From: a virus
Direction: 5' to 3' (one strand)
IMG/VR virus record: IMGVR_UViG_3300042691_032784
Span: 1 to 64,000 of that record
Length of the DNA: 64,000 bases
Part shown: piece after piece, positions 1-61,954 of the stretch
Layout of the letters: each line of letters opens with the position of its first letter
Numbering within the stretch: position 1 is the first letter of the stretch
Program-made: the position numbers and the translations under genes
Notes under the pieces: generated by a model
Told to the model about the DNA's origin: nothing
Database searches by the model: none
Seen by the model: the letters and a program-made list of their open reading frames with translations, nothing else

Positions 1-752
1 CATTAATTAATGTAGAACTTGAAGAATTAGATAAAGAAGTTAAAAAACTTAAAGTTACATTAAAAAGTATTAATGATTTTTTTGAAAATAATAGAGATAA
101 ATTAGTAGGTTGTGTAGACTACAACCTTCTTCTAAATGGGGAACATCAATATATTAAAACTCCATTAAATGCAACAGAAGAATATGCTAATATTAATTTA
201 ATAGCTTTAAGAGATACTACTAAATTAATTAATAATAAAGAAGCTAGACTTAAAGTTATTAAAGGTCAAAAATTACATATTAAAGTTTTCTTTTATATTA
301 TTAAAAGAATTAACGAATTAATAGTAGATGCATTAATATATAAAGGTTATCAATTAAGAGATGATTTTATAGGTACTATTAAAATTATTAATGCTAAAGA
401 TAAAAAGAAAAGACCTGATTGGAATAAAAGTCTTATTAATAAACAAAAATTAATAGAACAAGGTAAAATTCCTTATATGAAAGCTGATGCTGAAAAAGCA
501 TTAAAAGAAAATAAACCTTATAATGGAGTTCCTTGGCTTGTTTATCATAGTAGTGAAGATAGTCTTTGGTTTAATTGGAGTTATGGTTTAAGACCTGCTT
601 TAATTTTACCTAATATTAGAAATTATGTTTTTGTTCCTTTAAGAGGTACTACAGGAGCTGTTGCTAAATTACAAGAATTTAGAAAAAGTTTAAATAAAGA
701 TGCATTTAATGAAAGATTTAATAATCCTAATAAATTTAAAATATGCACGTAA
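1..752 (+). CDS. crAss-type IHF-like protein, 5'-truncated (the 477..752 ORF is only its C-terminus)
   Basis: Frame is open from nt 3 (LINVELEELDKE...) into the 477 ATG; contains the G-x-I-K-I...PDWNKS...LVYH...WFNW pattern; sits directly before the tail tubular gene as in crAss-like phages. Confidence 0.55.
   Translation, partial: LINVELEELDKEVKKLKVTLKSINDFFENNRDKLVGCVDYNLLLNGEHQYIKTPLNATEEYANINLIALRDTTKLINNKEARLKVIKGQKLHIKVFFYIIKRINELIVDALIYKGYQLRDDFIGTIKIINAKDKKKRPDWNKSLINKQKLIEQGKIPYMKADAEKALKENKPYNGVPWLVYHSSEDSLWFNWSYGLRPALILPNIRNYVFVPLRGTTGAVAKLQEFRKSLNKDAFNERFNNPNKFKICT
119..143 (+). repeat. Dispersed motif copy 1 (degenerate)
   Basis: ctacaaccttcttctaaatggggaa. Confidence 0.5.
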
Positions 753-1417
753 ATTATATAAGTACTAAACAATTAATTGGTAGAATTTTAAATGGTATTG
801 GATTAGAATCTACTAATTTTGTTGATAGTTTTCCTCAATGGATTGAAGATGCTATTAGTATTATAGGTATTCCTAAATATTATATACATAAACATTATGT
901 TATAAATATTAATCAACATAAAGGAAGTTTACCTTGTGATGTTGAAAGTATACATAGTTTATGGGTTGATACTAATTTAAATTCTTTTTCTAAAAGAAGT
1001 TGTTTAAAACATTTAACTATTAGAAATAACCCTCTTATAGGACATGAAATTAAATTACCTCAACATGAAAGTGTTTATGGTAATATAAATGGTAGATTTT
1101 TAGAAACATCATTTTATAACGGTAAGGTGTTATTAATATATAAAGGTATTCCATGTGATGATGAAGGATATCCTTTAGCTCCTAGTAATGCTGATTTTAT
1201 TCAAGCTTTTGAATATTATGTTATTATGAGATTAGCTTTAATAGGTTATAAACATCCTATATTAAATTATGAACAAGCATATCAATTATGGGAAAAACAT
1301 TATCCTAGAGCTGGAAATTCTATTAATTGGATGAGTTTACCTGAATATCAAGAATTTACTGAAATGTGGAATAATAGTATATTAGGAGACTTACAAAGTC
1401 TTAATTATATACATTAA
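743..1417 (+). CDS. Tail tubular/ring protein (P22 gp4-like, crAss type)
   Basis: 224 aa, WIEDA...I and Y-x-G-x-P-x-D-x-E-G-Y-P motifs; position before the large tail stabilization gene. Confidence 0.7.
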   Translation: MHVNYISTKQLIGRILNGIGLESTNFVDSFPQWIEDAISIIGIPKYYIHKHYVININQHKGSLPCDVESIHSLWVDTNLNSFSKRSCLKHLTIRNNPLIGHEIKLPQHESVYGNINGRFLETSFYNGKVLLIYKGIPCDDEGYPLAPSNADFIQAFEYYVIMRLALIGYKHPILNYEQAYQLWEKHYPRAGNSINWMSLPEYQEFTEMWNNSILGDLQSLNYIH

Positions 1418-1429
1418 CATAATAATAAT

Positions 1430-4400
1430 ATGGAACAATTTAAAGGTTTAAGTAGAGATACTACTAGAAGTAAAACTCCTGCAGGAATGTGGGAGTTTGC
1501 TCGTAATATATTATTAACAAAAGGATTTACTTCTGTATCTAATGAATATGGATTTATAGAACAAGTTGATATTCCTGGAGAAGTTATTGGAGTTATAAGT
1601 ACAAATGAAGAAACTGTTATATTAAGTATAGATGGTGATTTTTCTTGTATTGGGTACTTTAATAATGAAGAATTAATATATATTCCTGTAATAAGAAGTA
1701 TTTATCTTGGTTTTAAAATTAATCATCCTATTGAAGGAGTATTTTTTTATAATTTTAAACAAGAATTAATAATAGCTTTTTGTGATGGTGTAGCATTAGA
1801 TAGTAATACTCCTAAATTAATTAATCTTAATAATTTAGGTTTTGAAGTAGATGTTAATTATGAATTAGTTAATCCAGATGATATAAATTTATTAAATTTA
1901 TTTATTAATACAATAGAAGGTAATATAAGAATATCATATGGTACAAATAGTACTATTCCTATAGATATAGTTTATATTACTTTTTGTTATGTATTACCGG
2001 ATAATATATCTACTACTCCTTATTATCCTGTTCATCATATAGCTTATCCTACTTTTCAATGGAATGAAAAAAATAGAAGACCTGTAATTATTAATTTAAC
2101 TGAATTAGATAATAAATATGATCAACTTAAAATTGGATTAATTATTAATACTGATAATGGTTTAGTAGGATATGAAAGTTTTCCTATTAATTATAATAAT
2201 AGTCAATTAAATTATACTATATCTTCTTTAACTGATTTTACTATTACAACTTTAGATAATTTAATAGTACCTACTATATTTTATAATAGAGTTAAAACTA
2301 TGACTACTCAAAATAATCAATTAGTTATAGGTAATATAGCAATAGAAGAAGAAATAAAAATACAAAAATATGTAAATAGATTAGAACTTAAATTACAATA
2401 TATAATTGATGAAGAAGAAAAATTTACTCATCCCACTCTTTGTCCTGATGAAGTTTATGCTATTTATATACAACCTCAATGGTTAACTGGTGAATTTGGT
2501 AAAGCTTATCCTCTTATTGGTCCTGAACCTAATAATAATACTGAAAGAAATATATTAACTCAAACAGATTTAAATAATTTAGGTTTAAATGAATTAGATG
2601 CTAATGAATATAAAAAATTTCATATTATTAATTCAGGAGATTGGGTATTACCTCCACCTTTTATATCTAATGGAGATAGTTCTCAAGTAGCTCTTAAATG
2701 GGGTTTTTGGGAAAATGAAGAAGTTTATCCTAATATAGAAGATTTTAATAGTACAATTGATTATAATAATAATCCTTTAGGAGGAACAGATTTAAGAAAT
2801 ACTCCTATTAAATATTTTAGAGTTCCCGGATTAGATAATATTATTAAAAAAATACCTTGTCCTTTAGGACATACTCATAAAAATGATTTAAATAATTCTG
2901 TAACTTTTCAAGGTTATATTCCTAAATTTGGTGTATATTTAAATAATTTTAATACTGTTTTTCCTGAAAAAGTTAGAGAAAAAATGCAAGGATATAGATT
3001 ATTAATAGTTAAAAGAAAACAAGGAAATAGATTAGTAGAAGATATACCTTTTATACATCATGGAGAAACAAGAACTATGGATATAGATGGTACTAATCGT
3101 GAATTTATTCATGCTAATTATGATAATCCTCAAGCAGATGGAGGACAATCTTTAAGACATATTTATATTCAACATGGTTTTTCAAAATTATGGAGTTCTA
3201 CATTATCTTATTATAAAAATACAATATCTGCTAAAATTATTAAAGCTAATTATGGAATAACTCATACAAGAGTAAGGAGTGGAAATGATATAGAAATAGA
3301 ATTAGATGATAAAGGTACTTTTGAAAGTGTAAATTCTATTTCTAATTTTACCGGTTATTGTAAAATAAAAGAAACACAAAAATATGGAATTATTAAAGAT
3401 TTAATTTATGTTCCTGGTAATAATATTGCTGCTAAAACTCAATTTCTTGAAGAAGGTATATTTTTAAAAGCTAAAAATTATCTACAAACAGATGATGGGG
3501 GTTACACAGATTTACCTGATGAAAAATGGAATCCTTTATTAATTTATAGTCCTAATGGTCTTAGTTCAAGAATTGATAATATAGAATTATATAATAGTAC
3601 TACTAGATTATATGAAGATTTTGATATAACTGAATCAGATGGTTGTTATAAAAAAACATTATCTGTTACTTTATTAAATTTACAAAAAAATTTGTATAGT
3701 GGATTTAATCCAAAAGAATTTATATCTTTAGGAAGAGTTAATATTAATGAATCTAATAAAATATTATCAGATAATGGAGATATTTTTACTAATAATATTA
3801 TTAGGGTTCCTACTGGTATACTTTTAGGTACTTCTATATTTGGAAGAATAATATATAATGATTTATATATAAAAGGTATTTGGAATATTAATAATAATTC
3901 TAGTGTTTTTATAGAAAAAGATAGACCTTATAATCGAATTTATGAATTAGATGGAGATGGTAGTGAAAGTGGTTTAGTTAATACATTTGAATTTAATTTA
4001 AGTTTTTTTAATGAAGATGTTTTTAGAAGTTTAAATGATTTAATTGTTGCAATAGCTAATAATAGTTTAAAACCTTTTATTAATTATTTTCCTTTTAGAG
4101 TAGCAAGAACTCCTAAAATTCCTAATGAAAATTTACAAACTAATGTATTAAGAACTTTTAGAGCTAATGATTATTATGAAATGCTTAATGATAGAGGAGA
4201 AATTATAGCAATAAGAGGTACTAATAAACAATTATTTATTCAACAAAAATATAGTTTATTTGTAGCTACTCTAAAAGATAAACTTAATACAGATGGTACT
4301 AGTACTTATTTAGGAGAAGGAGATATATTTGATAGAACACCTGATGAAATTAAATTTAATACTAATAAAGGTTATATAGGATGTACTAATCAATTTGCTT

Positions 4401-5824
4401 GTATTATTTGTCCTAGTGGTTATGTAGTTGTAGATCAAATTAAAGGTAAAATATTTTTAATAGGTGATGAATATACTGAAATTAGTAAAGCTAATATGAT
4501 TAATTGGTTTGAAGCTAATTGGGATACTAAATTTTATTATATTTTAGATAGATTTAGTAAAAAACAAAGAGTTGATAATCCTTTTAATAGTATTGGTCAT
4601 TTAGTAGGTTATGATGAAGATAATAATAGATTATTATTTACTAAAAAATATTATGAATTTAAATTTCCTGAATTAGTAGAAAATGATGAAGAAGTAGGAC
4701 CTTTTACTTATACATTTGATGGAGAGTTTTATTATAATAAAACAAGTTTAGTTAATGGTATTCAAGTAAATGTAAATAATCAACCTTCAAATGGTAATAC
4801 TACTTCTTTAAATTATAGAGATATTAATAATGTTCAATTATTTAATGTATCTTGTATATTTGTAAATACTGTAACAGACCCTAATCATGTTTTAATAGGT
4901 ATTAATCGTTTTGCTACATTTGTTAATTATATATCTTATATAAATTTAAAATTAAGTGAAGCTAATTTAATAGAAGGTAAAGATTATTATTTAACTATTA
5001 GTAATAATGGAGTAGATACTCCTTATTTTATATTAACTATTTTTAATAACACTGTATTAGTTTCTAATGATAATAATGTTACTGGTTTTACTTTTAATTA
5101 TCCTGTTATTGAAATACCTTTTCCAAAAAGACTAATATATAATGATGAACGTTATTTTATTAATAAAAGTAAAACTTTATCTTTTCAATTAGATGATAAA
5201 GTATGGGTATGTGAACATGATTATTATCCTAATGCTTATTATTTTAATCAATTAGGTTTATTTAGTATTTATAATAACCCTACTTTTGAATTAGATGAAG
5301 AAGGAGCTGTAATTAATATTAATTTTAATTTTAGTAATTATATACATAATCAAAAATCTGTTAATAGAGGATTATTTTATAATAAAAATTATCAATCTTA
5401 TATTGATTTAATATTTAATGGAAGATTAGATTTAAGTAAATTATATCAAGCTGTAACTTGGGAAAGTGTTGTTTATACAATAGAACAAGCTAGATTATAT
5501 AATAATACTATTGATGCTATAATGATTTATAGTGATTATCAATGTAGTGGAGTTATTAATTTAGAACAATTTGTAAATTGTAGAAATGTAGAAGGTGTTT
5601 GGAATTTTAATGAATTTAGAGATGTTGTAATTAATTCTAATTTCCCCATAGTTGATAGTGTTGGAGACTTAGTTGAAAATAATGTAAATTTTAACAAAAG
5701 TTTTTTTGATAAGTCAAAATTTATTGGTACATTTGTAGTTATACGCCTAATTATGTTTAATAATAATACTAATGATGTATATATTAATCAAGTTAATGTA
5801 AAAAGTAGAATTTCTAAAAGATAA
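1430..5824 (+). CDS. Tail stabilization/muzzle protein (P22 gp10-like)
   Basis: 1464 aa, N-terminal KGLSRD...ARNI...SNEYG, beta-rich, C-terminal F-I-G-x-F-V-V-I-R-L; crAss synteny. Confidence 0.75.
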   Translation: MEQFKGLSRDTTRSKTPAGMWEFARNILLTKGFTSVSNEYGFIEQVDIPGEVIGVISTNEETVILSIDGDFSCIGYFNNEELIYIPVIRSIYLGFKINHPIEGVFFYNFKQELIIAFCDGVALDSNTPKLINLNNLGFEVDVNYELVNPDDINLLNLFINTIEGNIRISYGTNSTIPIDIVYITFCYVLPDNISTTPYYPVHHIAYPTFQWNEKNRRPVIINLTELDNKYDQLKIGLIINTDNGLVGYESFPINYNNSQLNYTISSLTDFTITTLDNLIVPTIFYNRVKTMTTQNNQLVIGNIAIEEEIKIQKYVNRLELKLQYIIDEEEKFTHPTLCPDEVYAIYIQPQWLTGEFGKAYPLIGPEPNNNTERNILTQTDLNNLGLNELDANEYKKFHIINSGDWVLPPPFISNGDSSQVALKWGFWENEEVYPNIEDFNSTIDYNNNPLGGTDLRNTPIKYFRVPGLDNIIKKIPCPLGHTHKNDLNNSVTFQGYIPKFGVYLNNFNTVFPEKVREKMQGYRLLIVKRKQGNRLVEDIPFIHHGETRTMDIDGTNREFIHANYDNPQADGGQSLRHIYIQHGFSKLWSSTLSYYKNTISAKIIKANYGITHTRVRSGNDIEIELDDKGTFESVNSISNFTGYCKIKETQKYGIIKDLIYVPGNNIAAKTQFLEEGIFLKAKNYLQTDDGGYTDLPDEKWNPLLIYSPNGLSSRIDNIELYNSTTRLYEDFDITESDGCYKKTLSVTLLNLQKNLYSGFNPKEFISLGRVNINESNKILSDNGDIFTNNIIRVPTGILLGTSIFGRIIYNDLYIKGIWNINNNSSVFIEKDRPYNRIYELDGDGSESGLVNTFEFNLSFFNEDVFRSLNDLIVAIANNSLKPFINYFPFRVARTPKIPNENLQTNVLRTFRANDYYEMLNDRGEIIAIRGTNKQLFIQQKYSLFVATLKDKLNTDGTSTYLGEGDIFDRTPDEIKFNTNKGYIGCTNQFACIICPSGYVVVDQIKGKIFLIGDEYTEISKANMINWFEANWDTKFYYILDRFSKKQRVDNPFNSIGHLVGYDEDNNRLLFTKKYYEFKFPELVENDEEVGPFTYTFDGEFYYNKTSLVNGIQVNVNNQPSNGNTTSLNYRDINNVQLFNVSCIFVNTVTDPNHVLIGINRFATFVNYISYINLKLSEANLIEGKDYYLTISNNGVDTPYFILTIFNNTVLVSNDNNVTGFTFNYPVIEIPFPKRLIYNDERYFINKSKTLSFQLDDKVWVCEHDYYPNAYYFNQLGLFSIYNNPTFELDEEGAVININFNFSNYIHNQKSVNRGLFYNKNYQSYIDLIFNGRLDLSKLYQAVTWESVVYTIEQARLYNNTIDAIMIYSDYQCSGVINLEQFVNCRNVEGVWNFNEFRDVVINSNFPIVDSVGDLVENNVNFNKSFFDKSKFIGTFVVIRLIMFNNNTNDVYINQVNVKSRISKR
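5641..5664 (-). repeat. Dispersed motif copy 2
   Basis: reverse complement ccaacactatcaactatggggaaa. Confidence 0.8.
5705..5735 (+). promoter_or_regulatory. Bacteroidota primary-sigma promoter inside the 3' end of the muzzle gene
   Basis: TTTG (5705-5708), 19 nt, TACATTTG (5728-5735); ~90 nt upstream of the 5828 start. Confidence 0.65.
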
Positions 5825-5827: not shown

Positions 5828-8281
5828 ATGCAACAACCTGATAAAAATAAAAGTAAAATTAAACCAGTAACTAGAGGAGATAGTTTAGTTGTTTATAATA
5901 GTACAGTTAAATTTGAGAATAAACTTAAAGAATTAAAATATAAAAAAACTAGTTCTTTTAAATCAGATATTAATAATAATTCTCAATTATATGGTAATAT
6001 ATATTCTTTTAATAATAATGATATTAAAATAAATCCTAATTATGTTGATTTAGAAGAATTAAAAAAAAATATATATAAAGATAGTAAAGGAGATATTTAT
6101 TTAAAACCTACAGTACCTCGTAAAGGTACTACTAATTATGGTAATATTAATGTAAATAATAAACCTGTTTTAAAAAAAATAGATGATAATCGATATTTAA
6201 CTATTGAAGATTTAGCTTATATAGGTTATAATACTGATTTACCTAATATTATATTAGATAAAAGAATTAAGCCTCAAAAAATAGAAGGATATGATTTAAA
6301 TGATGGAAATAAAAGAGATGTTATAAGTTTTAGTAAATATGATAAACTAGCTGTTAAACCTTTTGATTTATTAACAGAAAAAGAAAAAGTTAAAAGAGTA
6401 GAAGAATATGGTACTGATGGAGTTCCTCAAAGTTATTTGAATAAAACTAAAAATAATACAAGTACAAATACAAATACTACTAATAAACCATATACTAATA
6501 AACCAACTGCTACATATAGTACTAAACCAACTGCTACATATAGTAAACCTAGAGAAAAAGTTGAAGCTATTAAACCTTTACCTAGTGCATCTATAAAGAC
6601 TGGTAGTAATACTTTATATTCTGATGTTAAGGTTATTCGTAAAGCTAGAACCCCTAAAGCTTATAAAGTAGAAACTAGTGGAGGTAGTAAATCTAACAAA
6701 TGGAGAACAACACAAACTGTTAGTACTCCTGATAATATAGGAGCTAATGATGGAGATACAAGAAAAATAGTTCCTCTTTTTGGTGATGGTGGTAAAATTA
6801 ATACAATAAATGTTATGAGAAAACCAAGATTAAATAGTAGAAAAAGATATATTTCTCCTGCTGTAATTGGTGCAGGAGTTAATGTAGGAATGGGATTAAT
6901 TCAAGGAGCATTACAAAGAGGTGCTCCTATTAAAGCTAGAAGTAATGCTTTAAATCAAATGTGGAAAGAAAAATCTGTTAGTGATGCTCAAAGTTTTGAT
7001 GATTATACTAAAAATATTGATGATGTTATTGATTATTATGCTGATGGTGGTAAACTTCCAACATTATCATCTATGGGGAAATATAACACAACAGGAGGTA
7101 AATTAAAACCTATTGCTGATGGAGTTGTTGAAGTACAAGGTAATAAACATGGAGAAAAAACTATTGATAATTCTTATGGAGTTACTTTACATAAAGGTAA
7201 TCAACCAATTGCTGAAGTAGAAGATAAAGAAGTTATGGTAGAACAACCTGATGGTGATATGGTTTTTAGTGCAAGATTAAAAGATGAAAAAGGTGTATCA
7301 TTTGCTAATAGAATGAAACAATTAGCTAAAAAACGTAATAAATTAGAAAAAGATTTAGATAAAAATTATGATACTAAATCTCGTAATAGTATTGAACGTA
7401 AATTAGCAGGTCTTAATATGGCTGAAGAAGTTCTTAAAATTAAACAAGAAGAAGTTAAATTTGAAGAAGGTCAAGCTGAATTAGATAAACTAGCTAATGG
7501 TGGTAAAATTCCTAAATATGCTAATGGTACTATGAATTTAGGAGATACAGATAATTATTTATCTAAAAATAATAAACAAATGTGGAAAGATATATTACCT
7601 ACTTTAGCTGATAATGCAGGTAATATGTTATTAACTCTTAATACTCCTAAATTAGCTAAACCTATTAGAAAAAGTGCAGTTAATTTAAATACTAACTATA
7701 ATATTAATCCTCAATTATCAGAAGTTAAAAATGAAATAAATGCTATTACAGATAATATTTATAAAAATACATCTAATAGTAATATAGCAAGAGCTAATAT
7801 ATCTTCTGCTAGATTAAGAGGTTTACAACAGACTAATAATATATTAGGACAAAAAGAAAATATTGAAAATCAATTAAAGAATCAAAATAAATTAAATAAA
7901 CAACAAGTAGAACATATTAATATTGATGCAGATAATAATAATAATATGTTAGAATTTACTAGAGCTAATGATATTCATAGTAGAATTTCTGCAAATTTAG
8001 CAGATATGAGTAGTGATTTTAAAGAAGGACAAACTAGAAGAGATTATAATGCATATTATGATGAATCTATGTTATTAGAATTACTTGATGACCCTACTGG
8101 TGTTAAAGCTAGACATCTTATGAATAATCCTTATTTAAAAGCTAAATATGGTAAATATTTTACAAAACCTAGTAATACTGTTAATCCTAGACGTAAAAGA
8201 ATAGATACTAATTTTAATAATAATAATACTGTTATTGGTACTACTTATTTACCTAGAAGAATTGATGCTAATTTTAATTAA
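5828..8281 (+). CDS. Virion cargo/ejection protein
   Basis: 817 aa; VEVQGNKHGE and AEVEDKEVM...MVFS motifs of crAss cargo proteins, hydrophobic Gly-rich segment (PAVIGAGVNVGMGLIQG), coiled coils. Confidence 0.6.
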   Translation: MQQPDKNKSKIKPVTRGDSLVVYNSTVKFENKLKELKYKKTSSFKSDINNNSQLYGNIYSFNNNDIKINPNYVDLEELKKNIYKDSKGDIYLKPTVPRKGTTNYGNINVNNKPVLKKIDDNRYLTIEDLAYIGYNTDLPNIILDKRIKPQKIEGYDLNDGNKRDVISFSKYDKLAVKPFDLLTEKEKVKRVEEYGTDGVPQSYLNKTKNNTSTNTNTTNKPYTNKPTATYSTKPTATYSKPREKVEAIKPLPSASIKTGSNTLYSDVKVIRKARTPKAYKVETSGGSKSNKWRTTQTVSTPDNIGANDGDTRKIVPLFGDGGKINTINVMRKPRLNSRKRYISPAVIGAGVNVGMGLIQGALQRGAPIKARSNALNQMWKEKSVSDAQSFDDYTKNIDDVIDYYADGGKLPTLSSMGKYNTTGGKLKPIADGVVEVQGNKHGEKTIDNSYGVTLHKGNQPIAEVEDKEVMVEQPDGDMVFSARLKDEKGVSFANRMKQLAKKRNKLEKDLDKNYDTKSRNSIERKLAGLNMAEEVLKIKQEEVKFEEGQAELDKLANGGKIPKYANGTMNLGDTDNYLSKNNKQMWKDILPTLADNAGNMLLTLNTPKLAKPIRKSAVNLNTNYNINPQLSEVKNEINAITDNIYKNTSNSNIARANISSARLRGLQQTNNILGQKENIENQLKNQNKLNKQQVEHINIDADNNNNMLEFTRANDIHSRISANLADMSSDFKEGQTRRDYNAYYDESMLLELLDDPTGVKARHLMNNPYLKAKYGKYFTKPSNTVNPRRKRIDTNFNNNNTVIGTTYLPRRIDANFN
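6500..6545 (+). repeat. 24-bp in-frame tandem repeat (KPTATYST)
   Basis: aaaccaactgctacatatagta(ct) x2. Confidence 0.85.
7058..7081 (+). repeat. Dispersed motif copy 3
   Basis: ccaacattatcatctatggggaaa. Confidence 0.8.
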
Positions 8282-40393: not shown

Positions 40394-40400
40394 AATTAAT

Positions 40401-41913: not shown

Positions 41914-41939
41914 AATACTTTATTTAATAAATTTTGTTG

Positions 41940-42977: not shown

Positions 42978-43028
42978 ATAAATAGTAATTTATTTTACTA
43001 AATTTTTATAATTTTTTTCATCAATTTT

Positions 43029-44601: not shown

Positions 44602-44604
44602 CTT

Positions 44605-48811: not shown

Positions 48812-48813
48812 AA

Positions 48814-50458: not shown

Positions 50459-50459
50459 A

Positions 50460-51128: not shown

Positions 51129-51132
51129 AGTA

Positions 51133-51300: not shown

Positions 51301-51337
51301 TTGTTTTATTTTATTTTGGATTAAAATTAAGTTAGTT

Positions 51338-51888: not shown

Positions 51889-51900
51889 AGTACTATTATA

Positions 51901-52242
51901 TTAATTAGTTTCTTGTTCAATAAAAGTTAATAATACAAAATCTTCTTTTACAATAGTAAAAAGTATATTATATTTAACTTTTTCTTTAGGACGATTAAGA
52001 GAATCTTTTAATTGAAGAACTAATGGTATTTTATTTTCAATATCATTAGTATTTTTATAGAAATAAATTAATCTAGGATTTTCATGTTTACTAAAGTAAC
52101 CTTCTCTAATAGTAAAATTTTCAGATTCTTTATTTAATCTGTTTAATAATTTACTACGATGAGCATCTTTATAATAACTATGATTTTTAGCTAAAATTTC
52201 TCCTTGTTCTACTAAATATTTAATTATTAGAGGATTCTTCAT
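51901..52242 (-). CDS. Hypothetical protein
   Basis: 113 aa ORF. Confidence 0.55.
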   Translation of the reverse strand: MKNPLIIKYLVEQGEILAKNHSYYKDAHRSKLLNRLNKESENFTIREGYFSKHENPRLIYFYKNTNDIENKIPLVLQLKDSLNRPKEKVKYNILFTIVKEDFVLLTFIEQETN

Positions 52243-52540
52243 AATTGATAATACCTATAATATAATCAGATTTAATAGTTTTAAGATTTTCATAACCTTC
52301 TACCGGTAAATCAAAACGGTCTACACTATTAAACTGATAAATAATAATAGTATCAACTGTATAAACAGAACTATGTGATTTAATAACTTTACCTATTCTA
52401 AGAAATTTTTCTTTTTTAAGTTTATCAATAGTTTCTTGTGGTAATCTAACACCTCCTTGTGTTTCTTGAACTTGTACAGGTTCTTCTTCTATTAATAAGA
52501 AGCTTGGTTTTAATGAAATTTGTTCTAATTTTAATGACAT
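52220..52540 (-). CDS. groES: GroES-like co-chaperonin
   Basis: LKPSFLLIE...ETQGGVRLP mobile loop, GKVIK, C-terminal IKSDYIIGII. Confidence 0.65.
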   Translation of the reverse strand: MSLKLEQISLKPSFLLIEEEPVQVQETQGGVRLPQETIDKLKKEKFLRIGKVIKSHSSVYTVDTIIIYQFNSVDRFDLPVEGYENLKTIKSDYIIGIINYEESSNN

Positions 52541-52780
52541 AATTTATATTACTTTTTGATTTAACAATAACAGTTTTACACACTAGATTTTCTTTTAGTG
52601 TAACTTATAATCCTCTAATACATTTAGTTGTATTATCTATTTCTAGCATTATTATAAGAAATTGTTTCAACTTTTATTTATACACGTTTAAGTCACTATT
52701 AATTGGCATCACAATAGGCGTGAATTATAATAGTTAATCATCAGATTGTTTTCGTGTTTGATTATAAGAATCTTTTAAAT

Positions 52781-53044
52781 TTATTTTACTTTTATACTTT
52801 CTAAATAAGTACCAATAGTATAAAATAATACTTCTAATGATTCATCTGTTAATCCAATACAAGTATTAATTATATCATCTTTTACAAAAGTATCTGCACA
52901 TTTTATATCTAAATTTTCATATTTAGTTAAAGGTCTTTTAATTATAATTAAATTACCTTTAGGTTTTTTAATTACAATAACTTCTCTTTTTCTCTTAAAT
53001 TTACTAATAACTCCATTAGGATGGGTAGTTGTATTTATTTTCAT
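52781..53044 (-). CDS. Hypothetical protein
   Basis: 87 aa ORF. Confidence 0.55.
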   Translation of the reverse strand: MKINTTTHPNGVISKFKRKREVIVIKKPKGNLIIIKRPLTKYENLDIKCADTFVKDDIINTCIGLTDESLEVLFYTIGTYLESIKVK

Positions 53045-53066
53045 AAATTATGATTTATTAATTATA

Positions 53067-53354
53067 TTAAATTGCTATTTTTAAAGCTAATTCAAATTCT
53101 TCTTTAGATTGAATAAGTGTATTAGACAATGATTTTCTTGTATTCCAATTAGCAGTTATAGAAAGAAATATACCATATTTATCATCTCTATTAAATACTA
53201 ATTGTCTATAATCTTTACCTAATTTACCATAACTTCTTGATTCTACAACCCAATGTTTATTATTATAAACACCATATTGACCATCATCTTTTATTTTATA
53301 ATAACCTAAAGAATCTAAATATTCTTCAGTTAAATATGTATTATCTATATTCAT
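53067..53354 (-). CDS. Hypothetical protein
   Basis: 95 aa, LTEEYLDSLGY start typical of small phage ORFs. Confidence 0.6.
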   Translation of the reverse strand: MNIDNTYLTEEYLDSLGYYKIKDDGQYGVYNNKHWVVESRSYGKLGKDYRQLVFNRDDKYGIFLSITANWNTRKSLSNTLIQSKEEFELALKIAI

Positions 53355-53363
53355 ATTTATTAA

Positions 53364-53762
53364 TTATAATTTATTAGTTATAATTAAAGCATCAGTTAAT
53401 ATCATAGAATTATTTGCACTATAATGCAAAGGAAGAATATTATATATTTTATATCCTTTATTTGTTAATTCAATAATTTTATCTTGAATTGTAATAAATC
53501 TAGGAATAGATATAGAATAATGATGTAATTCTTTTTCTTGATTGTTAATATTTACTGGATTATCTAAAAAATTAGATTGTAAAACTTCAATTAGTTTTAT
53601 AACTGATTCATTATCTAATTCAATATAAGATTCACTAGCTTGAATAAGTAGTGATTTACCTCGTATTTTTTCCCCGTAGAAGGAATGTAGTGTTATGTTT
53701 GAACCAACTGATATTTTTTCTTTATCAGTAATTCCATAAAATTTAGCTAATTGTGTACTCAT
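53364..53762 (-). CDS. Hypothetical protein
   Basis: 132 aa ORF. Confidence 0.55.
   Translation of the reverse strand: MSTQLAKFYGITDKEKISVGSNITLHSFYGEKIRGKSLLIQASESYIELDNESVIKLIEVLQSNFLDNPVNINNQEKELHHYSISIPRFITIQDKIIELTNKGYKIYNILPLHYSANNSMILTDALIITNKL
53669..53690 (-). repeat. Dispersed motif copy 14
   Basis: reverse complement ctacattccttctacggggaaa. Confidence 0.7.
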
Positions 53763-53798
53763 AGTATTATAATTATTAGTTAATATTTATTTTAAGTT

Positions 53799-53822
53799 CC
53801 AACACTATTTCTAAGTGGGAAA
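53799..53822 (+). repeat. Dispersed motif copy 15 (intergenic)
   Basis: ccaacactatttctaagtgggaaa. Confidence 0.75.
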
Positions 53823-53924
53823 TATTCATAATTTTATATTTTAGATAAAATTATAAGACTTTAAATTAAGCGATTTAAGACATTCATTTTTAAACTAATA
53901 TTATAATATTATATAGGTACTAAA

Positions 53925-54270
53925 ATGCAAAGCCGGTAAGCTATGTGGCTGTACCGGCAAATTGCATCTTAAAAACAAACGAAATCAGACATAACCAAAA
54001 GTAATATATTGTATTATCATTAAAATCTTTAGCACCATCTCAATTTGTATCTCTCCCAATTTTAGATTTATTAATTCTAAAAGATACTCTTATTAATGGT
54101 CTAGCTGGTAACTCCTCACACGTCAACAGTTTATATAACTACGGGATCATGTAGTTATTAGACTTATGTTCACTCTCAAATACCATATCAAGTGCTGTGT
54201 GGATAATCTTATACATAAATTAGTTTATATGCTTTCGAATTATCTTTATTAAGGTCATAGGTTTAACCTG
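53925..54270. ncRNA. Candidate structured non-coding RNA or leader
   Basis: atgcaa-gccggta.../...taccggc-ttgcat hairpin (53925-53967) plus gtatct/agatac and ataactac/gtagttat stems; no substantial ORF. Confidence 0.4.
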
Positions 54271-54276
54271 TATTTA

Positions 54277-54477
54277 TTATTCTTTTATTTTAAATTGCCA
54301 ATTTTGAGAATCAGCTAATTTTGAAGCATTTTTAGCTTCATTAATAGCATTTTCTCTTTCTTTACTACTTAAATCACTTATTTTAGTATAAGTAATTGAT
54401 GTTGTAATTGCTGGTGCAGTATTACCTGTTTTACTACAAGTTGGAATTACTACTACGAATTTAAGTTTTTTCTTCAT
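54277..54477 (-). CDS. Hypothetical protein
   Basis: 66 aa ORF. Confidence 0.55.
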   Translation of the reverse strand: MKKKLKFVVVIPTCSKTGNTAPAITTSITYTKISDLSSKERENAINEAKNASKLADSQNWQFKIKE

Positions 54478-54543
54478 TTTGTTGTTTTAATTTATTAATA
54501 ATATGTTTTAAGAACAATATTTTTTATTTATTAGGTTTTTATA

Positions 54544-54693
54544 TTAATGTTTTACTACTCGTTTAATACGAGTATAATTATCAGGATTATAACAATGTAA
54601 AATACATAAACTTCTAATACAACTTTGTTGTATACTATTAGTAGAATATACTAATTGTCCTACTGCAATTCTAGGTCTTTTACTTTTAGACAT
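54544..54693 (-). CDS. Small hypothetical protein (49 aa, not in ORF track)
   Basis: MSKSKRPRIAVGQLVYSTNSIQQSCIRSLCILHCYNPDNYTRIKRVVKH, starts right after the upstream stop. Confidence 0.45.
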   Translation of the reverse strand: MSKSKRPRIAVGQLVYSTNSIQQSCIRSLCILHCYNPDNYTRIKRVVKH

Positions 54694-54694
54694 A

Positions 54695-55069
54695 TTATAT
54701 TTGTTTAGTTAAACAATTAATAATATATAAAGCAAATTGATTTTGAATAGATTTAGCTTTATCTGCTCTAAGATTGTGACCATCTGTACCAGTTAAATTA
54801 CCCCAACCACGTAAAATAATTAATACTTTACTACCTGATTTAATTAAACTACCTTCAACAGATAAATCAGGAAAATATTGTTGTACTTTAAGATTATTAT
54901 TAATAGCATGAAGTACTTCTTTTTTAGTTTCATTAGAAAGATATATACCATTAGTATCATCTTCTTCACTGAATTGAAATGCCATTTCATTATCTTTAGT
55001 TAGAACAGTATCATCTAATACTAAATCTTGTTTTAATGGGAATTTGTAATACATTTTAAATGCTTCCAT
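54695..55069 (-). CDS. Hypothetical protein
   Basis: 124 aa, RGWGNLTG segment. Confidence 0.65.
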   Translation of the reverse strand: MEAFKMYYKFPLKQDLVLDDTVLTKDNEMAFQFSEEDDTNGIYLSNETKKEVLHAINNNLKVQQYFPDLSVEGSLIKSGSKVLIILRGWGNLTGTDGHNLRADKAKSIQNQFALYIINCLTKQI

Positions 55070-55095
55070 GATTATGTTAGTTTTCGTTATTAATT

Positions 55096-55272
55096 AGAAG
55101 GTCTATTTTACCTTCTCGCACAATGCTATAAAATTATAGCTACTTACATTAATATTAGCATTATGGTTTAGCTAATAAAGTATTGCTACTTGTAAGGCAA
55201 TTATCTACTTAACGACTTATAGTAAAATAATTGCTGCCACTTCTATTACTCGTTTCCGGCATAAAGTAATAG
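55096..55272. ncRNA. Candidate multi-hairpin RNA element
   Basis: Five consecutive stems in under 200 nt (see findings). Confidence 0.45.
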
Positions 55273-55290
55273 ATTTATTAACTCCAGTAG

Positions 55291-55665
55291 CTATGAGTCT
55301 ACTGTGTTTAATGTTTTAATATAATTCTTTAATATTTTATCAAATCTACTTAATGTTTTAGTACATTTTCGTAGACAATAATATTTAATAAGAGAATCAG
55401 TAATATGTTTATATGTTTTTTCTAAATCATCAAACATACTAGGAATGTTTTTAACTCTTTGAAGTTCTTCTTCAGGAACTTTAGAATATTTATTATAAAT
55501 AAAACTACTTTCACTAAGAAATAATTTTGCTTCATCAATACTAGAAGTAGCATAAACATTTCTAATTTTATCTGTAACTTTATAATAATTATCTTTAAGT
55601 TCTATAGTAAAATTATTAGATTCTAATAATTCTATTAATTTAAGACCTGATATATGAGTAATCAT
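55291..55665 (-). CDS. Hypothetical protein
   Basis: 124 aa ORF. Confidence 0.55.
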   Translation of the reverse strand: MITHISGLKLIELLESNNFTIELKDNYYKVTDKIRNVYATSSIDEAKLFLSESSFIYNKYSKVPEEELQRVKNIPSMFDDLEKTYKHITDSLIKYYCLRKCTKTLSRFDKILKNYIKTLNTVDS

Positions 55666-55671
55666 AATAAT

Positions 55672-56094
55672 TTAATTTAGTGTTGGATAATTATCTATTA
55701 AAGTTAAAGGTTTAATGTATTTACCTGCATATACTATATTTATAGGATGAAGTTTATCTGTAGTATAAATATATTTATAATAAATACCTTTAGCTAAAAT
55801 AATATCATCTGGTACTATTGAAAATTCATCAGTAATACATTGAGGTATAATAGGTTTATTATTATCAATATATAAACTTGTATATTCATAATATAAATTC
55901 TTATAATTAGAATCAAATTTAGAAGAATTAGATAATTTAAAAATTATAATTTTAATAGTATCTGATTTAATAGTATCTGATTTAATACTATTAATATTTT
56001 TTTCTTCTAATATAGGAGCTTTTTTAATATTGTAATAAAATACAATAAATGATGTTATCATCAATACTATTAATATGATTATGATTGTTTGCAT
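55672..56094 (-). CDS. Hypothetical membrane-anchored protein
   Basis: N-terminal TM helix; 15-bp duplication (IKSDT x2). Confidence 0.55.
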   Translation of the reverse strand: MQTIIIILIVLMITSFIVFYYNIKKAPILEEKNINSIKSDTIKSDTIKIIIFKLSNSSKFDSNYKNLYYEYTSLYIDNNKPIIPQCITDEFSIVPDDIILAKGIYYKYIYTTDKLHPINIVYAGKYIKPLTLIDNYPTLN

Positions 56095-56098
56095 TTGT

Positions 56099-56374
56099 TT
56101 AAGGATTAAAAGTTATAATTGATTCATATCTTATTATTCCATCTATTTCATATCTTTTTGATATTTTAAAAGGTATATTAAAATCTTTAGCATCAAATAA
56201 GTTATGTATTAATTCTTTAGCTTTATTATGTGGTAATATAATAGATTTAAAGTTTATATCATTACCTGCTATAAAATTAATAAGTGGAAGGTCTGATGTA
56301 ATGTCTACTTCATATACTTGGTCAGTAGATATTGATAGTTTTGTGTAAAGTTTGTCTGATTTATTTAAGTACAT
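56099..56374 (-). CDS. Hypothetical protein
   Basis: 91 aa ORF. Confidence 0.5.
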   Translation of the reverse strand: MYLNKSDKLYTKLSISTDQVYEVDITSDLPLINFIAGNDINFKSIILPHNKAKELIHNLFDAKDFNIPFKISKRYEIDGIIRYESIITFNP

Positions 56375-56392
56375 GATTAAGTTAATTTGTAC

Positions 56393-56820
56393 TGTTAGTA
56401 TTATGTTTTGTGGTGTAGGTAAGTGGTTGATATTGAGTTAATAAGGGTTTAGGTGGTTTTTTGGGATTAATAGAATGAGTTAATGTATTATTAGAGTGAT
56501 TAATATGGTTATTATTGGGTTTATGAGTGTGTGTAGGATTAGAGTTATGGTTGTTAGGATTAGGGAGATTTTGGTGTGAATTAGTAGGTAGATGAGTAGA
56601 TGAATTATTATATGTTGTTATTACTATGAGTTATGGCAACTTAAGTAATTATATAAATAACGGTACATATAACTCAGGGTCTACGTGCTTATGCCTATGT
56701 CTTCTTTTACTCTTACAATCAACTCTAACACTACAACCCCATCTACTCCAACACCTAATCTCCCCTCTCCATTTTAACCAATAACTAATCAATCAACAGT
56801 ACTATGCCCATAATAAATCA
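56393..56820. other. Non-coding skew-switch region / long imperfect inverted repeat
   Basis: No C on + strand 56393-56623; no G on + strand 56700-56798; nested complementary blocks around ~56650. Confidence 0.7.
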
Positions 56821-56929
56821 AATTACCTAGTTAGTAATTTAATAATCAATCAATAGTAATATAACCACAATATTCTACTGCCCAAACAATAGAATTTAAT
56901 CAATCTTTAGTAATATATCAAACTTAATA

Positions 56930-57379
56930 TTATGTAGGCTTATTAGCCTTTAAATTATCAGGATAATTACTATTATCTTCTTTTTTAATAAACATATCAC
57001 CATGACCTTTAAAAGATTCTTCCTCAGTAACAGGTCTAGTTCTTAAATCACTTAATGGTCTATTCATATCATGATTACGTTTATCTTTTTTATCTTGTAA
57101 TATTTTATTCATAACATCAGCAAAATCTTTAATATCTTTTATTGCTTTATTTAGTTTAGTATAATACATAATAATATTATGTAAACATACTGCACCTAAT
57201 GTTAAATTAACAACATTAAGAATAATTAAAGCAATTAAAGCATAAAGTCTTGCTAAAGTGGTTCTAACATTAACATCATCAAGAGTGATAATATTAAATG
57301 TGTGTGTTAGAATTAATACTTCGAATAGTAATACTAATAATAGTATTGAATAGAATGGAATAAGTTTATGAATTTTCAT
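56930..57379 (-). CDS. Hypothetical membrane protein (2 TM helices)
   Basis: Two hydrophobic segments in the N-terminal half. Confidence 0.6.
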   Translation of the reverse strand: MKIHKLIPFYSILLLVLLFEVLILTHTFNIITLDDVNVRTTLARLYALIALIILNVVNLTLGAVCLHNIIMYYTKLNKAIKDIKDFADVMNKILQDKKDKRNHDMNRPLSDLRTRPVTEEESFKGHGDMFIKKEDNSNYPDNLKANKPT

Positions 57380-57436
57380 TTTGATTATGTTTTAAATTAT
57401 TTGTTTTATTAATACTTCGTTTACTTTTACAACCAG

Positions 57437-57470
57437 AAGCATACTCGCCACATATGTAGCGAATATGCTT
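57437..57470 (-). other. Long RNA hairpin downstream of the 57502 gene
   Basis: Minus strand aagcatattcgctaca-ta-tgtggcgagtatgctt; both DNA mismatches become G-U pairs. Confidence 0.65.
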
Positions 57471-57501
57471 GATTGTTATAGCCCGTACCTATTGTATGAG
57501 C

Positions 57502-58134
57502 TTATTTTTTGTTACCTTTTCCGGCAGGTTTACCAAAAGCTTCTGTTTCTACTTCATCTTCTTCTTCAGCTTCAGAAGTATAACCTGCAAAAGGATTAGG
57601 TTGAGCAACAGGTTGAGCAACAGGTTGAGCAACGGCACCAAAAGAACTAATACCCATAGATGCTAAAAAGCCTTTACCAATGGTATTAGCAATAGCTAAA
57701 CGAGTTAGTTCCATATCAGTCAATGGAATATCCATAAAACCTTCAATACGTTGTCCGTCTTGTTGATAAGCAACTCTATCACCAATCTTTACTTTACCAC
57801 TCAATTCATGAGTAGTAGTAGTAATAGCAGGATGTTTTTCATCGATAATATAAGTATCGCCTGCTTTATGATAAGAGATTTCAGTAGTTGCAATAGCACC
57901 TCTACAAGCATGTAATTCAGCTGTAAATTGAGGGTCTTCAACACTCACAACACCAATAGCTCTACCGCTGTTTTGAAGAGAGATAAGAGCTTGTTGAGGA
58001 TTAACAACAATATCCGGATGTCTAGTAACCATACCATTAGTAACTTGGTCAACTGCAAAAATAACAACAGGACGTTTAACTTTAGTGTTCATAGGAATGA
58101 TACGAACTCCATTAATTCTAAATTGTGTTTTCAT
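57502..58134 (-). CDS. Hypothetical protein, first gene of the leftward block
   Basis: Likely start MKTQFR at 58134; AQPV repeats (12-bp unit) and acidic tail; higher GC than neighbours. Confidence 0.7.
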   Translation of the reverse strand: MKTQFRINGVRIIPMNTKVKRPVVIFAVDQVTNGMVTRHPDIVVNPQQALISLQNSGRAIGVVSVEDPQFTAELHACRGAIATTEISYHKAGDTYIIDEKHPAITTTTHELSGKVKIGDRVAYQQDGQRIEGFMDIPLTDMELTRLAIANTIGKGFLASMGISSFGAVAQPVAQPVAQPNPFAGYTSEAEEEDEVETEAFGKPAGKGNKK

Positions 58135-58179
58135 AATAAAATATATAAATAAATAATAAAAGATTTTAGTAGCCACAAG

Positions 58180-58990
58180 GACTACTACAGAACGTGGTTA
58201 ATGCTTAAACAAACAAGCAAAGCTATGTGTTAACACAAAATCTAAGCGAGTATTATTAATTTAAGCATTATGCTTTGTAGAGATTTAAGCAAAGTAGTAC
58301 GGGTACTTCAAAACCTCCAAAACTTAGTAGGGGTCTTTATTAGGGTGGGTTCACGTATACGGGGTTAACTATATATTCCTATTAATCCACATACAACTCC
58401 TCCTCCAACAATCAACTCCATCAAACTAACCTCCTCCTAAACCAACATCACCAAATCTAACCAAACTAATCCTACCAAAACCTCATCAACTTAACCAAAT
58501 AAAACCTTTATCAACATTACAAACTTTTACAACTCTACCATCACTACTAAAAAAAGTTATATTAGTGAGTTACTATACAGCATTAACATATTAACTACTA
58601 TTACCATTATCACCACTATTAAAAATTTTGTTAATATTATGTTAAAATATTATTAATTATTTGTATATTACATTTTATTTATTATATTAAGATTATATAA
58701 TACTAATTATTAATCAATAAAACAAATATATATATATAATTTAACAAAAATTTAACAATTAAATATAGTCGATTTAAGAGATTTTTCCCCTTAAATGATA
58801 ATGTTGTTGTCGAGTAAAAAATTATTAAATAGACGGTCTGAAAATGCCTATATATCAATTATTATTCATATATTTGTAATTGAATATAAAGTATTTTTAT
58901 ATAAGGTATTAATAATACTGGTTATATTGTTAATATAACTTTTTTTAGTAAAGATACTATTAGTAATAATGAACAACAAAATAATAATGA
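58180..58990. promoter_or_regulatory. Divergent control region / candidate replication origin
   Basis: Strand switch; G-runs at 58.30-58.36 kb; G-free tract 58365-58555; TGTTAA/TTAACA repeats flanking an AT-rich core; TATATTTG -7 boxes at 58723-58730 (-) and 58869-58876 (+). Confidence 0.55.
58784..58806 (-). repeat. Dispersed motif copy 16 (intergenic)
   Basis: reverse complement caacattatcatttaaggggaaa. Confidence 0.75.
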
Positions 58991-58991
58991 T

Positions 58992-59510
58992 ATGAAAGAA
59001 ACAATTAATCCTATTAATGTTAAAGTTCCTCAAGAACTTATTAACTATCGTCTTCAAGCTAAATCTATATTAGCTTTTTGTACTAATCAAGCTTATGCTA
59101 ATAATCAAAAATTTTCATATAGTATTGAATTTAAAAAAGGAGAACAAGCTATCACTTATGATAATGTAAATTATATTAAACATTATTATACTTTTAGTTT
59201 AATACTTCTTAATAAAAATACAAGTATTATTGGTCAAAGAATTGAATTATATGTAACACACTACCCAATTTCTATGGGGGAAAATAGTATTACTTTAGAA
59301 AAATTAGCATATAAAGATTTCTTTACTAATGCTATTGCTTCTCTTATTAATAATACTTATGCTATGTATATAAATTCTTTACAAAAAGATTTAGTTAAAC
59401 CAGAAGATGTAACTTCTGAAGATGCTGAAAGAGAAGCTGCTATTATTAAAAATAGAATTGAATCAGGTATTACTGAAGAAGAAAAACCAAAACTTATTAT
59501 AACTAAATAA
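58992..59510 (+). CDS. Hypothetical protein
   Basis: 172 aa, first gene of the rightward block. Confidence 0.65.
   Translation: MKETINPINVKVPQELINYRLQAKSILAFCTNQAYANNQKFSYSIEFKKGEQAITYDNVNYIKHYYTFSLILLNKNTSIIGQRIELYVTHYPISMGENSITLEKLAYKDFFTNAIASLINNTYAMYINSLQKDLVKPEDVTSEDAEREAAIIKNRIESGITEEEKPKLIITK
59259..59283 (+). repeat. Dispersed motif copy 17
   Basis: cactacccaatttctatgggggaaa. Confidence 0.7.
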
Positions 59511-60666: not shown

Positions 60667-61014
60667 ATGGTACCATTAATTTTAATGCCTGTTAAAGTTA
60701 TAAATAATATAACTAATAAGTTTAATGGAGATATAGTTATTAAAGCTATTTCATTAAATATTGCTGTTATTAAAAGTATTTCAGAAGATGAAGATAGTGG
60801 TCATGCTAATATTGAACTGTATAATAATATGTCTGACGTAGAAAATCCTAATATTAAAACTGCTATTCCTTTTATTACTTTTATTAATCATTTAAATAAT
60901 ATGCAATTAGTAGATTTTACTTTTTATAATTATTGTATGTCTTATAGTGATGCTGTAGATGATTATATTAAAAAAGGAATAGAACTTAGTAAACAACAAG
61001 ACCTTAATAAATAA
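60667..61014 (+). CDS. Hypothetical protein
   Basis: 115 aa ORF. Confidence 0.55.
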   Translation: MVPLILMPVKVINNITNKFNGDIVIKAISLNIAVIKSISEDEDSGHANIELYNNMSDVENPNIKTAIPFITFINHLNNMQLVDFTFYNYCMSYSDAVDDYIKKGIELSKQQDLNK

Positions 61015-61018
61015 TAAA

Positions 61019-61954
61019 ATGGAAAATATATTATTTAATGAAGCAGAACATAAATATTATGATACAGAAGGAAAAATATATACTTCTGTAACTACTCTTA
61101 TAGGTCAATATACTAATACTTTTGATGAAGATTTTTGGGCTATTTATACTGCTTTAAAAGAAAAGAATTTTAAAGTTAAACCTCAACCTGAAGTTAGACA
61201 AATTTATGTAAATAATGTTTTATTTAAATCTGATGATTTAATTAGAGATGCTAGATTTAAAAATTGGTATGATGAAATTAAAGCTAGATGGAAAAGTATT
61301 AATTTTGAAGCTTGTGAAAGAGGAAATAATACTCATAATGAATTAGAATTAGGTATTAATCAAAGTAAAGGAGATTTGTTTGGTTTAACCAACAACAACA
61401 TATCTTCTAAGGGGGATAAAGTTTTAGCTACACAACATGATTTAGATAATACTATTATTAAATCTAAATATCCTGAAGTTTATATTAGACTTTCTGGATA
61501 TATTAATAATGGTTTTTCTATATTTGCTGAAAAGAAAGTTTTTCTTAAAGAATTTTTATTAGCAGGTATGATTGATGTTCCTTTAGTTAAAAATAAACAT
61601 TTTTGTATTCTTGATTGGAAAACTAATAAAGATGAACTTAAAACTAAAGCTGGATATTATAAAAAGTCTAAAATTGGAAATACTTGGGTTAAAACAGATA
61701 TATTTGTTGAAACAGGAGAATGTTTTAAGTTTCCTCTTAATCATCTTGAAGCTAGTAAATTTAATATTTATTCATTACAACTTAGTACTTATGCTTATAT
61801 TCTTGAACAATGGGGATATATATTAGTTAATAATGGACTTGAAATAATACATTTTCCTTTAGGTTCTTCACCTAAATTAATTAAAATTCCTTATTTAAAA
61901 AGAGAAGTAGAAATTATGTTAAATCACCATAAACAAAATATATTATGCAATTAG
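61019..61954 (+). CDS. PD-(D/E)XK family nuclease
   Basis: HKY...SVTTLI, RGNNTH, AGMID...ILDWKTNK, YSLQLSTY. Confidence 0.85.
   Translation: MENILFNEAEHKYYDTEGKIYTSVTTLIGQYTNTFDEDFWAIYTALKEKNFKVKPQPEVRQIYVNNVLFKSDDLIRDARFKNWYDEIKARWKSINFEACERGNNTHNELELGINQSKGDLFGLTNNNISSKGDKVLATQHDLDNTIIKSKYPEVYIRLSGYINNGFSIFAEKKVFLKEFLLAGMIDVPLVKNKHFCILDWKTNKDELKTKAGYYKKSKIGNTWVKTDIFVETGECFKFPLNHLEASKFNIYSLQLSTYAYILEQWGYILVNNGLEIIHFPLGSSPKLIKIPYLKREVEIMLNHHKQNILCN
61396..61418 (+). repeat. Dispersed motif copy 18
   Basis: caacatatcttctaagggggata. Confidence 0.7.

Follow-up and report, generated by a model that had tools for sequence, protein, structure and literature searches.

An asymmetric word of about 24 bp recurs throughout the genome of the virus IMGVR_UViG_3300042691_032784 (hereafter G000), which is, on its protein matches, a distant crAss-like phage, and the word is under selection at the DNA level. 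The window studied comprises bases 1–64000 of this 81,152-bp record, whose final 69 bases repeat the first ones and leave a genome of 81,083 bp with a G+C content of ~24%. Our comparisons support the core proposal of an initial annotation of this DNA, namely that the copies belong to a sequence-specific recognition system, because the word exceeds its frequency in shuffled genomes, because orthologous sites are kept while their peptides change, and because related lineages carry their own variants of it. The copies are also arranged as close opposite-strand pairs at even spacing, an arrangement that did not appear in the title of that annotation and is highly non-random. The evidence points to a DNA-handling signal that is apparently undescribed in print. 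The initial annotation knew of no description, and literature searches on crAss-like promoters, on the crAssphage words as text and on crAssphage motif terms found none in the excerpts that they returned.

All 18 copies listed in the initial annotation are present in the window, at the places and on the strands given for them. Its strict form, CAACA-N5-7-TCTA-N1-3-GGGG, held only in part: this pattern gives 11 matches that represent nine distinct sites of the 18, while the other nine sites are degenerate (e.g., with AAACA, TTTA or GGG). The strict pattern had 0 matches in 100 dinucleotide shuffles. A position matrix, with its threshold placed above a shuffled genome, recovered all 18 copies and five more beyond the window (genome positions 65180-, 67201+, 71454-, 71736+ and 80949-), for 23 sites in the genome, 12 on the (+) and 11 on the (-) strand. 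A looser pattern detects 22 sites, against a mean of 0.95 and a maximum of 4 in 200 simulated Markov-3 genomes. Codon-preserving shuffles, a check proposed with the initial annotation, keep both the proteins and the codon usage; 100 of these gave a mean of 4.55 and a maximum of 8 for the same pattern. Runs of G4 or C4 are likewise in excess in the genome (47, against a shuffle mean of 23 and a maximum of 32), and 17 of the 38 runs in the window belong to the motif, close to the half that had been estimated.

The information in the motif spans ~26 bp and consists of an upstream box (CAACA), a spacer, TCTA, one to three bases, GGGG(G) and AAA; site alignments show no sequence conservation beyond this span. 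The 25 bases ahead of the G-run (-25 to -1) are poor in G (3.6% in G000) and rich in C. No internal inverted repeat or hairpin is apparent in alignments of 20–25 sites per genome, and a search for inverted repeats within 150 nt returned AT-rich noise only, none of it tied to the sites. As annotated, 16 of the 18 copies in the window lie in open reading frames (ORFs); that at 53799 is intergenic and that at 58784 falls only within a doubtful 51-aa ORF. The claim that the motif is independent of reading frame needs softening. All three frames do occur, but they are used unequally, the first G of sense copies being at codon position 3 in eight cases, position 2 in two and position 1 in three, so that GGG-GAA/AAA is often translated as Gly-Glu/Lys. 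That the constraint acts on the DNA rather than on the protein is nevertheless borne out by the shuffles and by the orthologous sites.

Opposite-strand neighbours less than 500 bp apart number nine in G000, compared with 1.5 under the null (0 of 20,000 trials reached 9), and the strand alternates at 20 of the 23 steps between sites (P ~0.001). The sites fall into 12 clusters that are 2.4–9.6 kb apart (~7 kb), with a coefficient of variation (CV) of spacing of 0.29 against 0.90 for random points (0 of 20,000 trials). Both orientations are present throughout, and the longest gap in site coverage is 9.3 kb. Eight of the pairs are of the (-,+) type and three of the (+,-) type, the latter all in replication genes, while site 61396+ has no partner. 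Relative to the local gene, 10 of the 23 sites are antisense, and the 15.2-kb ORF of the RNA polymerase (RNAP) contains two pairs (four sites). Sense copies are found 111 to 1216 nt ahead of the next start codon and do not cluster near starts. The genes of G000 form a rightward block (58992..26824, through the record start) and a leftward block (26869..58176). At the point where the two blocks diverge, G000 and three of its relatives (G001–G003) have a divergent pair of sites, each member pointing into its own block. Strain variation could be read at two sites, in one short stretch (21001–21611) of an assembled contig from a strain that is ~5% diverged: both changes in site 21241- bring it closer to the consensus, and the two changes in site 21492+ are in the spacer.

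The exact G000 word is almost absent from IMG/VR (12 single matches). Relatives were found through protein searches, which yielded phages of 79–89 kb, and four whole genomes were compared (G001, G002, G003 and G005). G001–G003 share 30–75% protein identity with G000, and each has its own over-represented word of like build: TCTATT-GGGGAA in G001, CTAAA-GGCAAA in G002 and CGAAT-N9-10-CTAY-GGGCAAG in G003. The core common to the lineage variants is CTA-N-GG(G/C)-AA. Close opposite-strand pairs are in excess in G001 (eight, P 0.0004), G003 (seven, P 0.0006) and G002 (five, P 0.03), and the regular ~7-kb repeat of clusters is found in G000 and G001. Pair distances range from 19 nt to 2 kb. Some pairs in G003 are only 19, 43 and 52 nt apart, and thus no fixed distance is needed between the members of a pair. 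The more distant G005 (IMGVR_UViG_3300031953_000003) has a weaker word, TACCGGGA, with 13 copies against 0.94 expected. As this word is over-represented but unpaired (one close pair, not an excess), G005 was not counted as a carrier of the system; its word may be a diverged or decaying form.

The initial annotation had proposed conservation in relatives as a check. We mapped the G000 sites through protein alignments, and regarded a position as kept if a site had the same orientation and lay at the same codon within 150 nt, mostly within 10. Of the mappable sites, 18 of 20 are kept in G001, 5 of 19 in G002, 4 of 17 in G003 and 1 of 14 in G005. At the kept places the word itself has changed where it stands, and the encoded peptide changes with it, e.g., LSSMGK, TTSIGE, GFPKGK and PSTTGK.

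A related signal occurs in gut phages. The portal and major head proteins of G000 match PHROG families, and its capsid protein is 32–36% identical to Crassvirales capsid proteins. The ORF at 11627..26824 (+) encodes 5065 aa with the DFDVD motif of crAss-type RNAPs at residue 2801 and matches the giant-virion-protein family phrog_16227, while the 1464-aa product of 1430..5824 has a weak match to the crAss muzzle domain. The prototype crAssphage (BK010471.1) has 31 sites of the form CCATCCTC(T/C)AC-GGGG (CCATCCTCYAC-GGGG), 13 on the (+) and 18 on the (-) strand, with per-strand spacing CVs of 0.43 and 0.31 against null values of 0.90 and 0.93 (first percentiles 0.52 and 0.58). The cultured phage crAss002 (MN917146.1) has 30 sites of the form CTCCTYTAY-GGGGGAA, 16 (+) and 14 (-), with spacing CVs of 0.40 and 0.39; 15 of these are sense and 15 antisense. 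Common to the G000 clade, crAssphage and crAss002 is a core that comprises a pyrimidine tract, TAY and a G-run (Yn-TAY-G3-6 followed by purines). Judged on this core, on copy numbers of ~20–30 and on the even per-strand spacing, the G000 word is a member of a crAss-wide signal family in a new bipartite, tightly paired form. In the environmental clade (~81–83 kb, 24–28% GC) there is in addition an upstream box (CAACA or CGAAT) at a distance of one helical turn, and this clade keeps the series of the two strands in phase as close pairs, whereas the sites of crAssphage and crAss002 are mostly unpaired and interleaved. None of the five G000 positions that could be mapped to crAssphage, nor of the five that could be mapped to crAss002, is held in common. 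Since positions turn over with divergence but the core word and its per-strand density are kept, it is the per-strand density that selection keeps. The signal was counted as lacking in phi14:2 (0 sites) and in crAss001 (3 sites). In crAssphage, back-to-back word pairs are also found in non-coding DNA at 28080–28180 and 95748–95872, just upstream of both RepL initiator genes; RepL (PF05732) was not found in G000–G003 or G005.

Across these genomes the signal appears to track the type of replication/recombination module rather than the virion RNAP. The virion RNAP is encoded by all the crAss-like phages compared, including the wordless phi14:2 and crAss001. Several proteins are common to G000 and crAssphage and gave no tblastn match in phi14:2 or crAss001: a DUF932/TIGR03299 protein, an ATP-dependent ligase, RecT, SNF2, a RecD2/Dda-like helicase and a PD-(D/E)XK exonuclease. 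From presence and absence alone, two proteins are candidate readers of the word. One is a 360-aa phrog_6077 protein (36073..37155), which is present in G001–G003 and not in G005. The other is the DUF932/TIGR03299 "phage/plasmid-like" protein (28354–29379, -). For both of them, PDB sequence and profile searches gave no match, and the Atlas offered only other families of unknown function; publications naming DUF932, judged by their listing alone, report no function for it. In the primase, an alignment reveals no obvious specificity domain. The DUF932/TIGR03299 protein is also among the best-conserved replication-module proteins of the clade (52–75% identity) and is 34% identical to crAssphage gp33, with many invariant polar residues.

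These patterns leave a function that would act strand-specifically and would be required at regular intervals on both strands. The reading that we tentatively place first, while holding it short of probable, is that the copies are programmed strand-specific nick or entry sites of the replication/recombination machinery. In this reading a sequence-specific enzyme, encoded by the phage as part of its replication/recombination module, would recognise the word and act on one strand at each site, the most likely act being a programmed single-strand cut where the pyrimidine tract (..TCTAY) gives way to the G-run. Interruptions about every 7 kb on each strand would result, with a free 3'-OH end or a swivel at each; strand-displacement and recombination-dependent replication would be seeded or restarted from these ends, and the interruptions would be sealed by the phage ligase. 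Here we infer that a phage protein reads the sites, that it belongs to the replication/recombination module and that its act is a nick. Lineage variants around a shared core are the pattern expected if the reader protein and its sites evolve together.

We place this reading first because nick motifs are the closest described systems: they are intragenic, their positions are kept among relatives and their variation suggests that enzyme and site co-evolve. In the consulted part of PMC3517423, they are the only described phage motifs that combine a short asymmetric form, intragenic sites, similar positions and a proposed co-evolution of enzyme and site. The motifs of T5/BF23, phiKMV-like and tf/LUZ24-like (TACT/RTGMC) phages are, like the G000 word, short, asymmetric, dispersed and intragenic; according to the same text, they are found at similar positions in related phages, with variation of the kind expected from co-evolution of enzyme and site. 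The phiKMV-group nick consensus CGACxxxxxCCTA/CTCCGG (PMC3517423, same part) has the same layout of box, spacer, CTA and GC-rich end as CAACA-N6-TCTA-N-GGGGAAA. A number of points weigh against nicks, however. The described systems, as far as that part of the source goes, have all their sites on one strand (PMC3517423), whereas G000 has 12 (+) and 11 (-) sites, even on each strand, mostly in inverted pairs and known from sequence alone. Two opposite-strand sites in G003 are only 19 nt apart, and nicks there would leave a 19-bp overlap to hold the duplex together. We know of no report that described nick sites are evenly spaced. The analysis covered assembled contigs, which cannot show nicks, and a G-run followed by purines is also what an RNA or primer start site looks like. 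Searches of 50-odd ORFs against PHROGs, Pfam and NCBIfam recognised no nickase, HUH protein, recombinase or extra (second) polymerase. Finally, the link to the module is drawn from about eight genomes of two to three lineages and is confounded by descent.

The junction could instead be a site-specific primer start, an alternative that we regard as possible but rather unlikely. On this view the ~24-bp site would be recognised by a primase of the phage, or by some other polymerase, which would begin a purine-rich primer where the pyrimidine tract meets the G-run, so that lagging or displaced strands would be primed about every 7 kb on either strand; the pairs could act as two-way origins. If the exposure of single strands has to be limited, an even per-strand spacing is what one would expect, and it is seen in all the genomes that bear the signal. 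A G-poor pyrimidine tract followed by GGGG and purines would give a purine-rich primer in either direction. The back-to-back non-coding pairs upstream of both crAssphage RepL genes and in the divergence region of G000–G003 are also in keeping with priming, as is the DnaG-like primase encoded by G000. Yet the wordless phi14:2 has a full-length homologue of this primase (25% identity over 363 aa), and the motif contains neither a hairpin nor any other single-strand structure. AT and GC skew at four-fold sites 0.3–3.5 kb on either side of the pairs in G000–G003 showed no consistent change and no periodic leading/lagging signal of many origins, in a test with little power because G and C are too rare at these sites. 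RSF1010 (ssiA and ssiB, on opposite strands) and ColE2 (Rep/ori) have dedicated, replicon-specific primases that recognise asymmetric sites of ~30–40 nt, one per strand at the origin; such sites are found once in a replicon, and those of the ssi type form hairpins, whereas the G000 word has 23 copies and no hairpin. Less likely again, and improbable in our judgement, are promoters from which a phage RNA polymerase would transcribe in both directions, the box near -14 conferring specificity, the TA-rich region melting and the GGG marking +1. Promoters of the T7 group are asymmetric sites of ~23 bp; their upstream part confers specificity and differs between lineages, a TA-rich stretch leads up to +1, and transcription starts on a GGG with purines after it. 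The G000 site has this overall layout, with a variable upstream box and a CTA-GGG-purine core conserved across lineages, and the divergent pair at the single block divergence point of G000–G003 is placed as promoters would be. It differs in its antisense copies, which make up half of the crAss002 sites as well, and in the copies within long ORFs, including the two pairs in the RNAP ORF. These features, with the absence of co-oriented placement upstream of genes, led us to set ordinary promoters aside. The virion RNAP, moreover, is shared with the wordless phages, and the part of a study of phi14:2 that was consulted describes no common motif at its early starts (10.1101/2020.03.07.982082). The T7-like RNAP profile PF00940 had 0 matches in G000, but control genomes gave none either.

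The presence of both orientations at even density, with no gap above 9.3 kb, is the coverage that two-way protection would need, and would suit a polar signal for a translocating helicase-nuclease or DNA motor (Chi- or KOPS-like) that marks self and limits degradation from breaks in either direction. A RecD2/Dda-like helicase, a RecB-like PD-(D/E)XK nuclease and RecT do co-occur with the signal, but no RecBCD- or AddAB-type complex was recognised, and we give this account little credence. Chi and KOPS words are 5–8 nt long and skewed with the direction of replication, and uptake signal sequences (USS) are more evenly spaced than expected by chance. Chi, KOPS, USS and DNA uptake sequences (DUS) resemble the G000 word in being over-represented and lying within genes in preferred frames; these are, however, cellular words of 5–12 nt, whereas the G000 word is ~24 bp long, bipartite, equal and interleaved on the two strands, phage-specific and changed between related phages. 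A similarly small probability attaches to architectural or packaging sites, at which a bound protein would bridge pairs and organise the genome in the capsid or in a replication compartment. Although the pairing and the regular 7-kb cluster repeat of G000 and G001 would fit this, the pairing is not general among the gut phages and the pair distances have no fixed geometry. It is very improbable that the pairs delimit invertible segments or small mobile elements resembling miniature inverted-repeat transposable elements. The copies do form inverted repeats 0.1–0.5 kb apart, but ORFs run through the pairs, similarity ends with the ~26-bp span, the exact word has so few matches in IMG/VR, and no strand-switch joint lies at a pair among the joints listed; we set such elements aside as the enclosed protein segments align with their orthologues in the same orientation, G000–G003 being collinear there. 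Sites resembling parS or matS were also rejected, since those are symmetric and clustered while the G000 sites are asymmetric and evenly spread on each strand. From the list of functions in the initial annotation, replication/recombination signals or programmed nicks thus fit best, whereas parS/matS-like sites and virion-RNAP loading or promoters appear unlikely.

With nicks or dedicated primer sites in mind, a wider proposal can be put forward, although we consider it doubtful as yet: that in many Crassvirales, from this environmental, freshwater/soil-type clade to the prototype gut crAssphage, replication starts from strand-specific entry points that form a grid over the whole genome, about every 6–7 kb per strand. 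In this clade the points would be paired into two-way units, and they would be read by a still-unrecognised replication/recombination enzyme, for which the DUF932/TIGR03299 protein is one candidate. If true, phage DNA would be replicated here from many starts, by strand displacement or recombination, a mode without a described counterpart. The most abundant virus of the human gut is among the crAss-like phages, of whose replication and DNA handling little is known, and a word kept at even per-strand density through essential genes gives direct access to such a little-known step in their life cycle. The signal spans lineages at least as far apart as 32–35% capsid-protein identity, across which it would co-evolve with its reader, and the G000 clade shows that it is not confined to the gut Intestiviridae. 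This clade also shows the sequence changing in place at conserved codons, and its bipartite form and tight pairing constrain models. In practice, the words are cheap lineage markers for crAss-like phages in metagenomes, and the 30 sites of the cultured crAss002 make the question testable at the bench.

The sites within the window are distributed as follows. The copy at 121..145 (+) has its partner at genome site 80949-, ~270 bp away through the record start. The copy at 5640..5664 (-) is antisense in the C-terminus of the 1464-aa muzzle-like gene and that at 7058..7082 (+) is sense in an 817-aa gene; both positions are kept in G001, G002 and G003. The RNAP ORF harbours 13920..13944 (-), antisense at aa 767, paired with 14245..14269 (+), sense at aa 879, and 21239..21263 (-), antisense at aa 3207, paired with 21493..21517 (+), sense at aa 3295. 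A convergent pair is formed by 28243..28269 (+), antisense in a 179-aa gene, and 28563..28587 (-), sense in the DUF932/TIGR03299 gene (aa 270). Another convergent pair lies in the ATP-dependent DNA ligase gene, with 37822..37847 (+) antisense and 38137..38161 (-) sense; the latter is not kept in G001. Further along, 46399..46423 (+) is antisense in a 162-aa gene, and 46597..46621 (-) is sense in the C-terminus of the DNA polymerase (aa 736), at a position kept in G001 and G002. The copy at 53668..53694 (-), within a 132-aa ORF, is paired with the intergenic 53799..53824 (+), which has GGG only. The divergent pair between the gene blocks consists of 58783..58807 (-), in the non-coding divergence region and pointing into the leftward (replication) block, and 59259..59283 (+), in the first gene of the rightward block. 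The unpaired copy at 61394..61418 (+) reads GGGGGAT and lies in the PD-(D/E)XK exonuclease-like gene.

Two further over-represented words, TGAATTAG and AGATTTAG, were rejected as sense-frame codon words, 33 of the 37 copies of TGAATTAG being in one frame. With 37 copies against 9.1 expected, TGAATTAG is a Glu-Leu codon word that is also enriched in G001 and phi14:2, which makes it ordinary rather than a DNA signal. The longest base-free runs of G000 all lie in non-coding DNA around the block divergence point, and comprise 231 nt without C (56393–56623), 99 nt without G (56700–56798) and 191 nt without G (58365–58555); they adjoin a cluster of G-runs at 58330–58364. This region may be an origin, packaging or leader region.

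The RNAP is encoded as a single ORF of 5065 aa in G000 and as one of 5234–5332 aa in its relatives. In phi14:2, it is a protein of 2180 aa, and an RNAP-associated protein and a large virion protein are encoded separately by the genes on either side. All or part of the G000 stretch 21001–31000 is held by 10 public sequencing runs from 10 studies, labelled as fungus, freshwater and bioreactor metagenomes, labels that we did not take as habitat; five runs hold at least half of the sampled sequence words and five under half, one of them (X10) a very small share. G000 also encodes a homologue of spore photoproduct lyase (35001–35861, -; PF20903, E 1e-22), with an orthologue in G001 only (73% identity).

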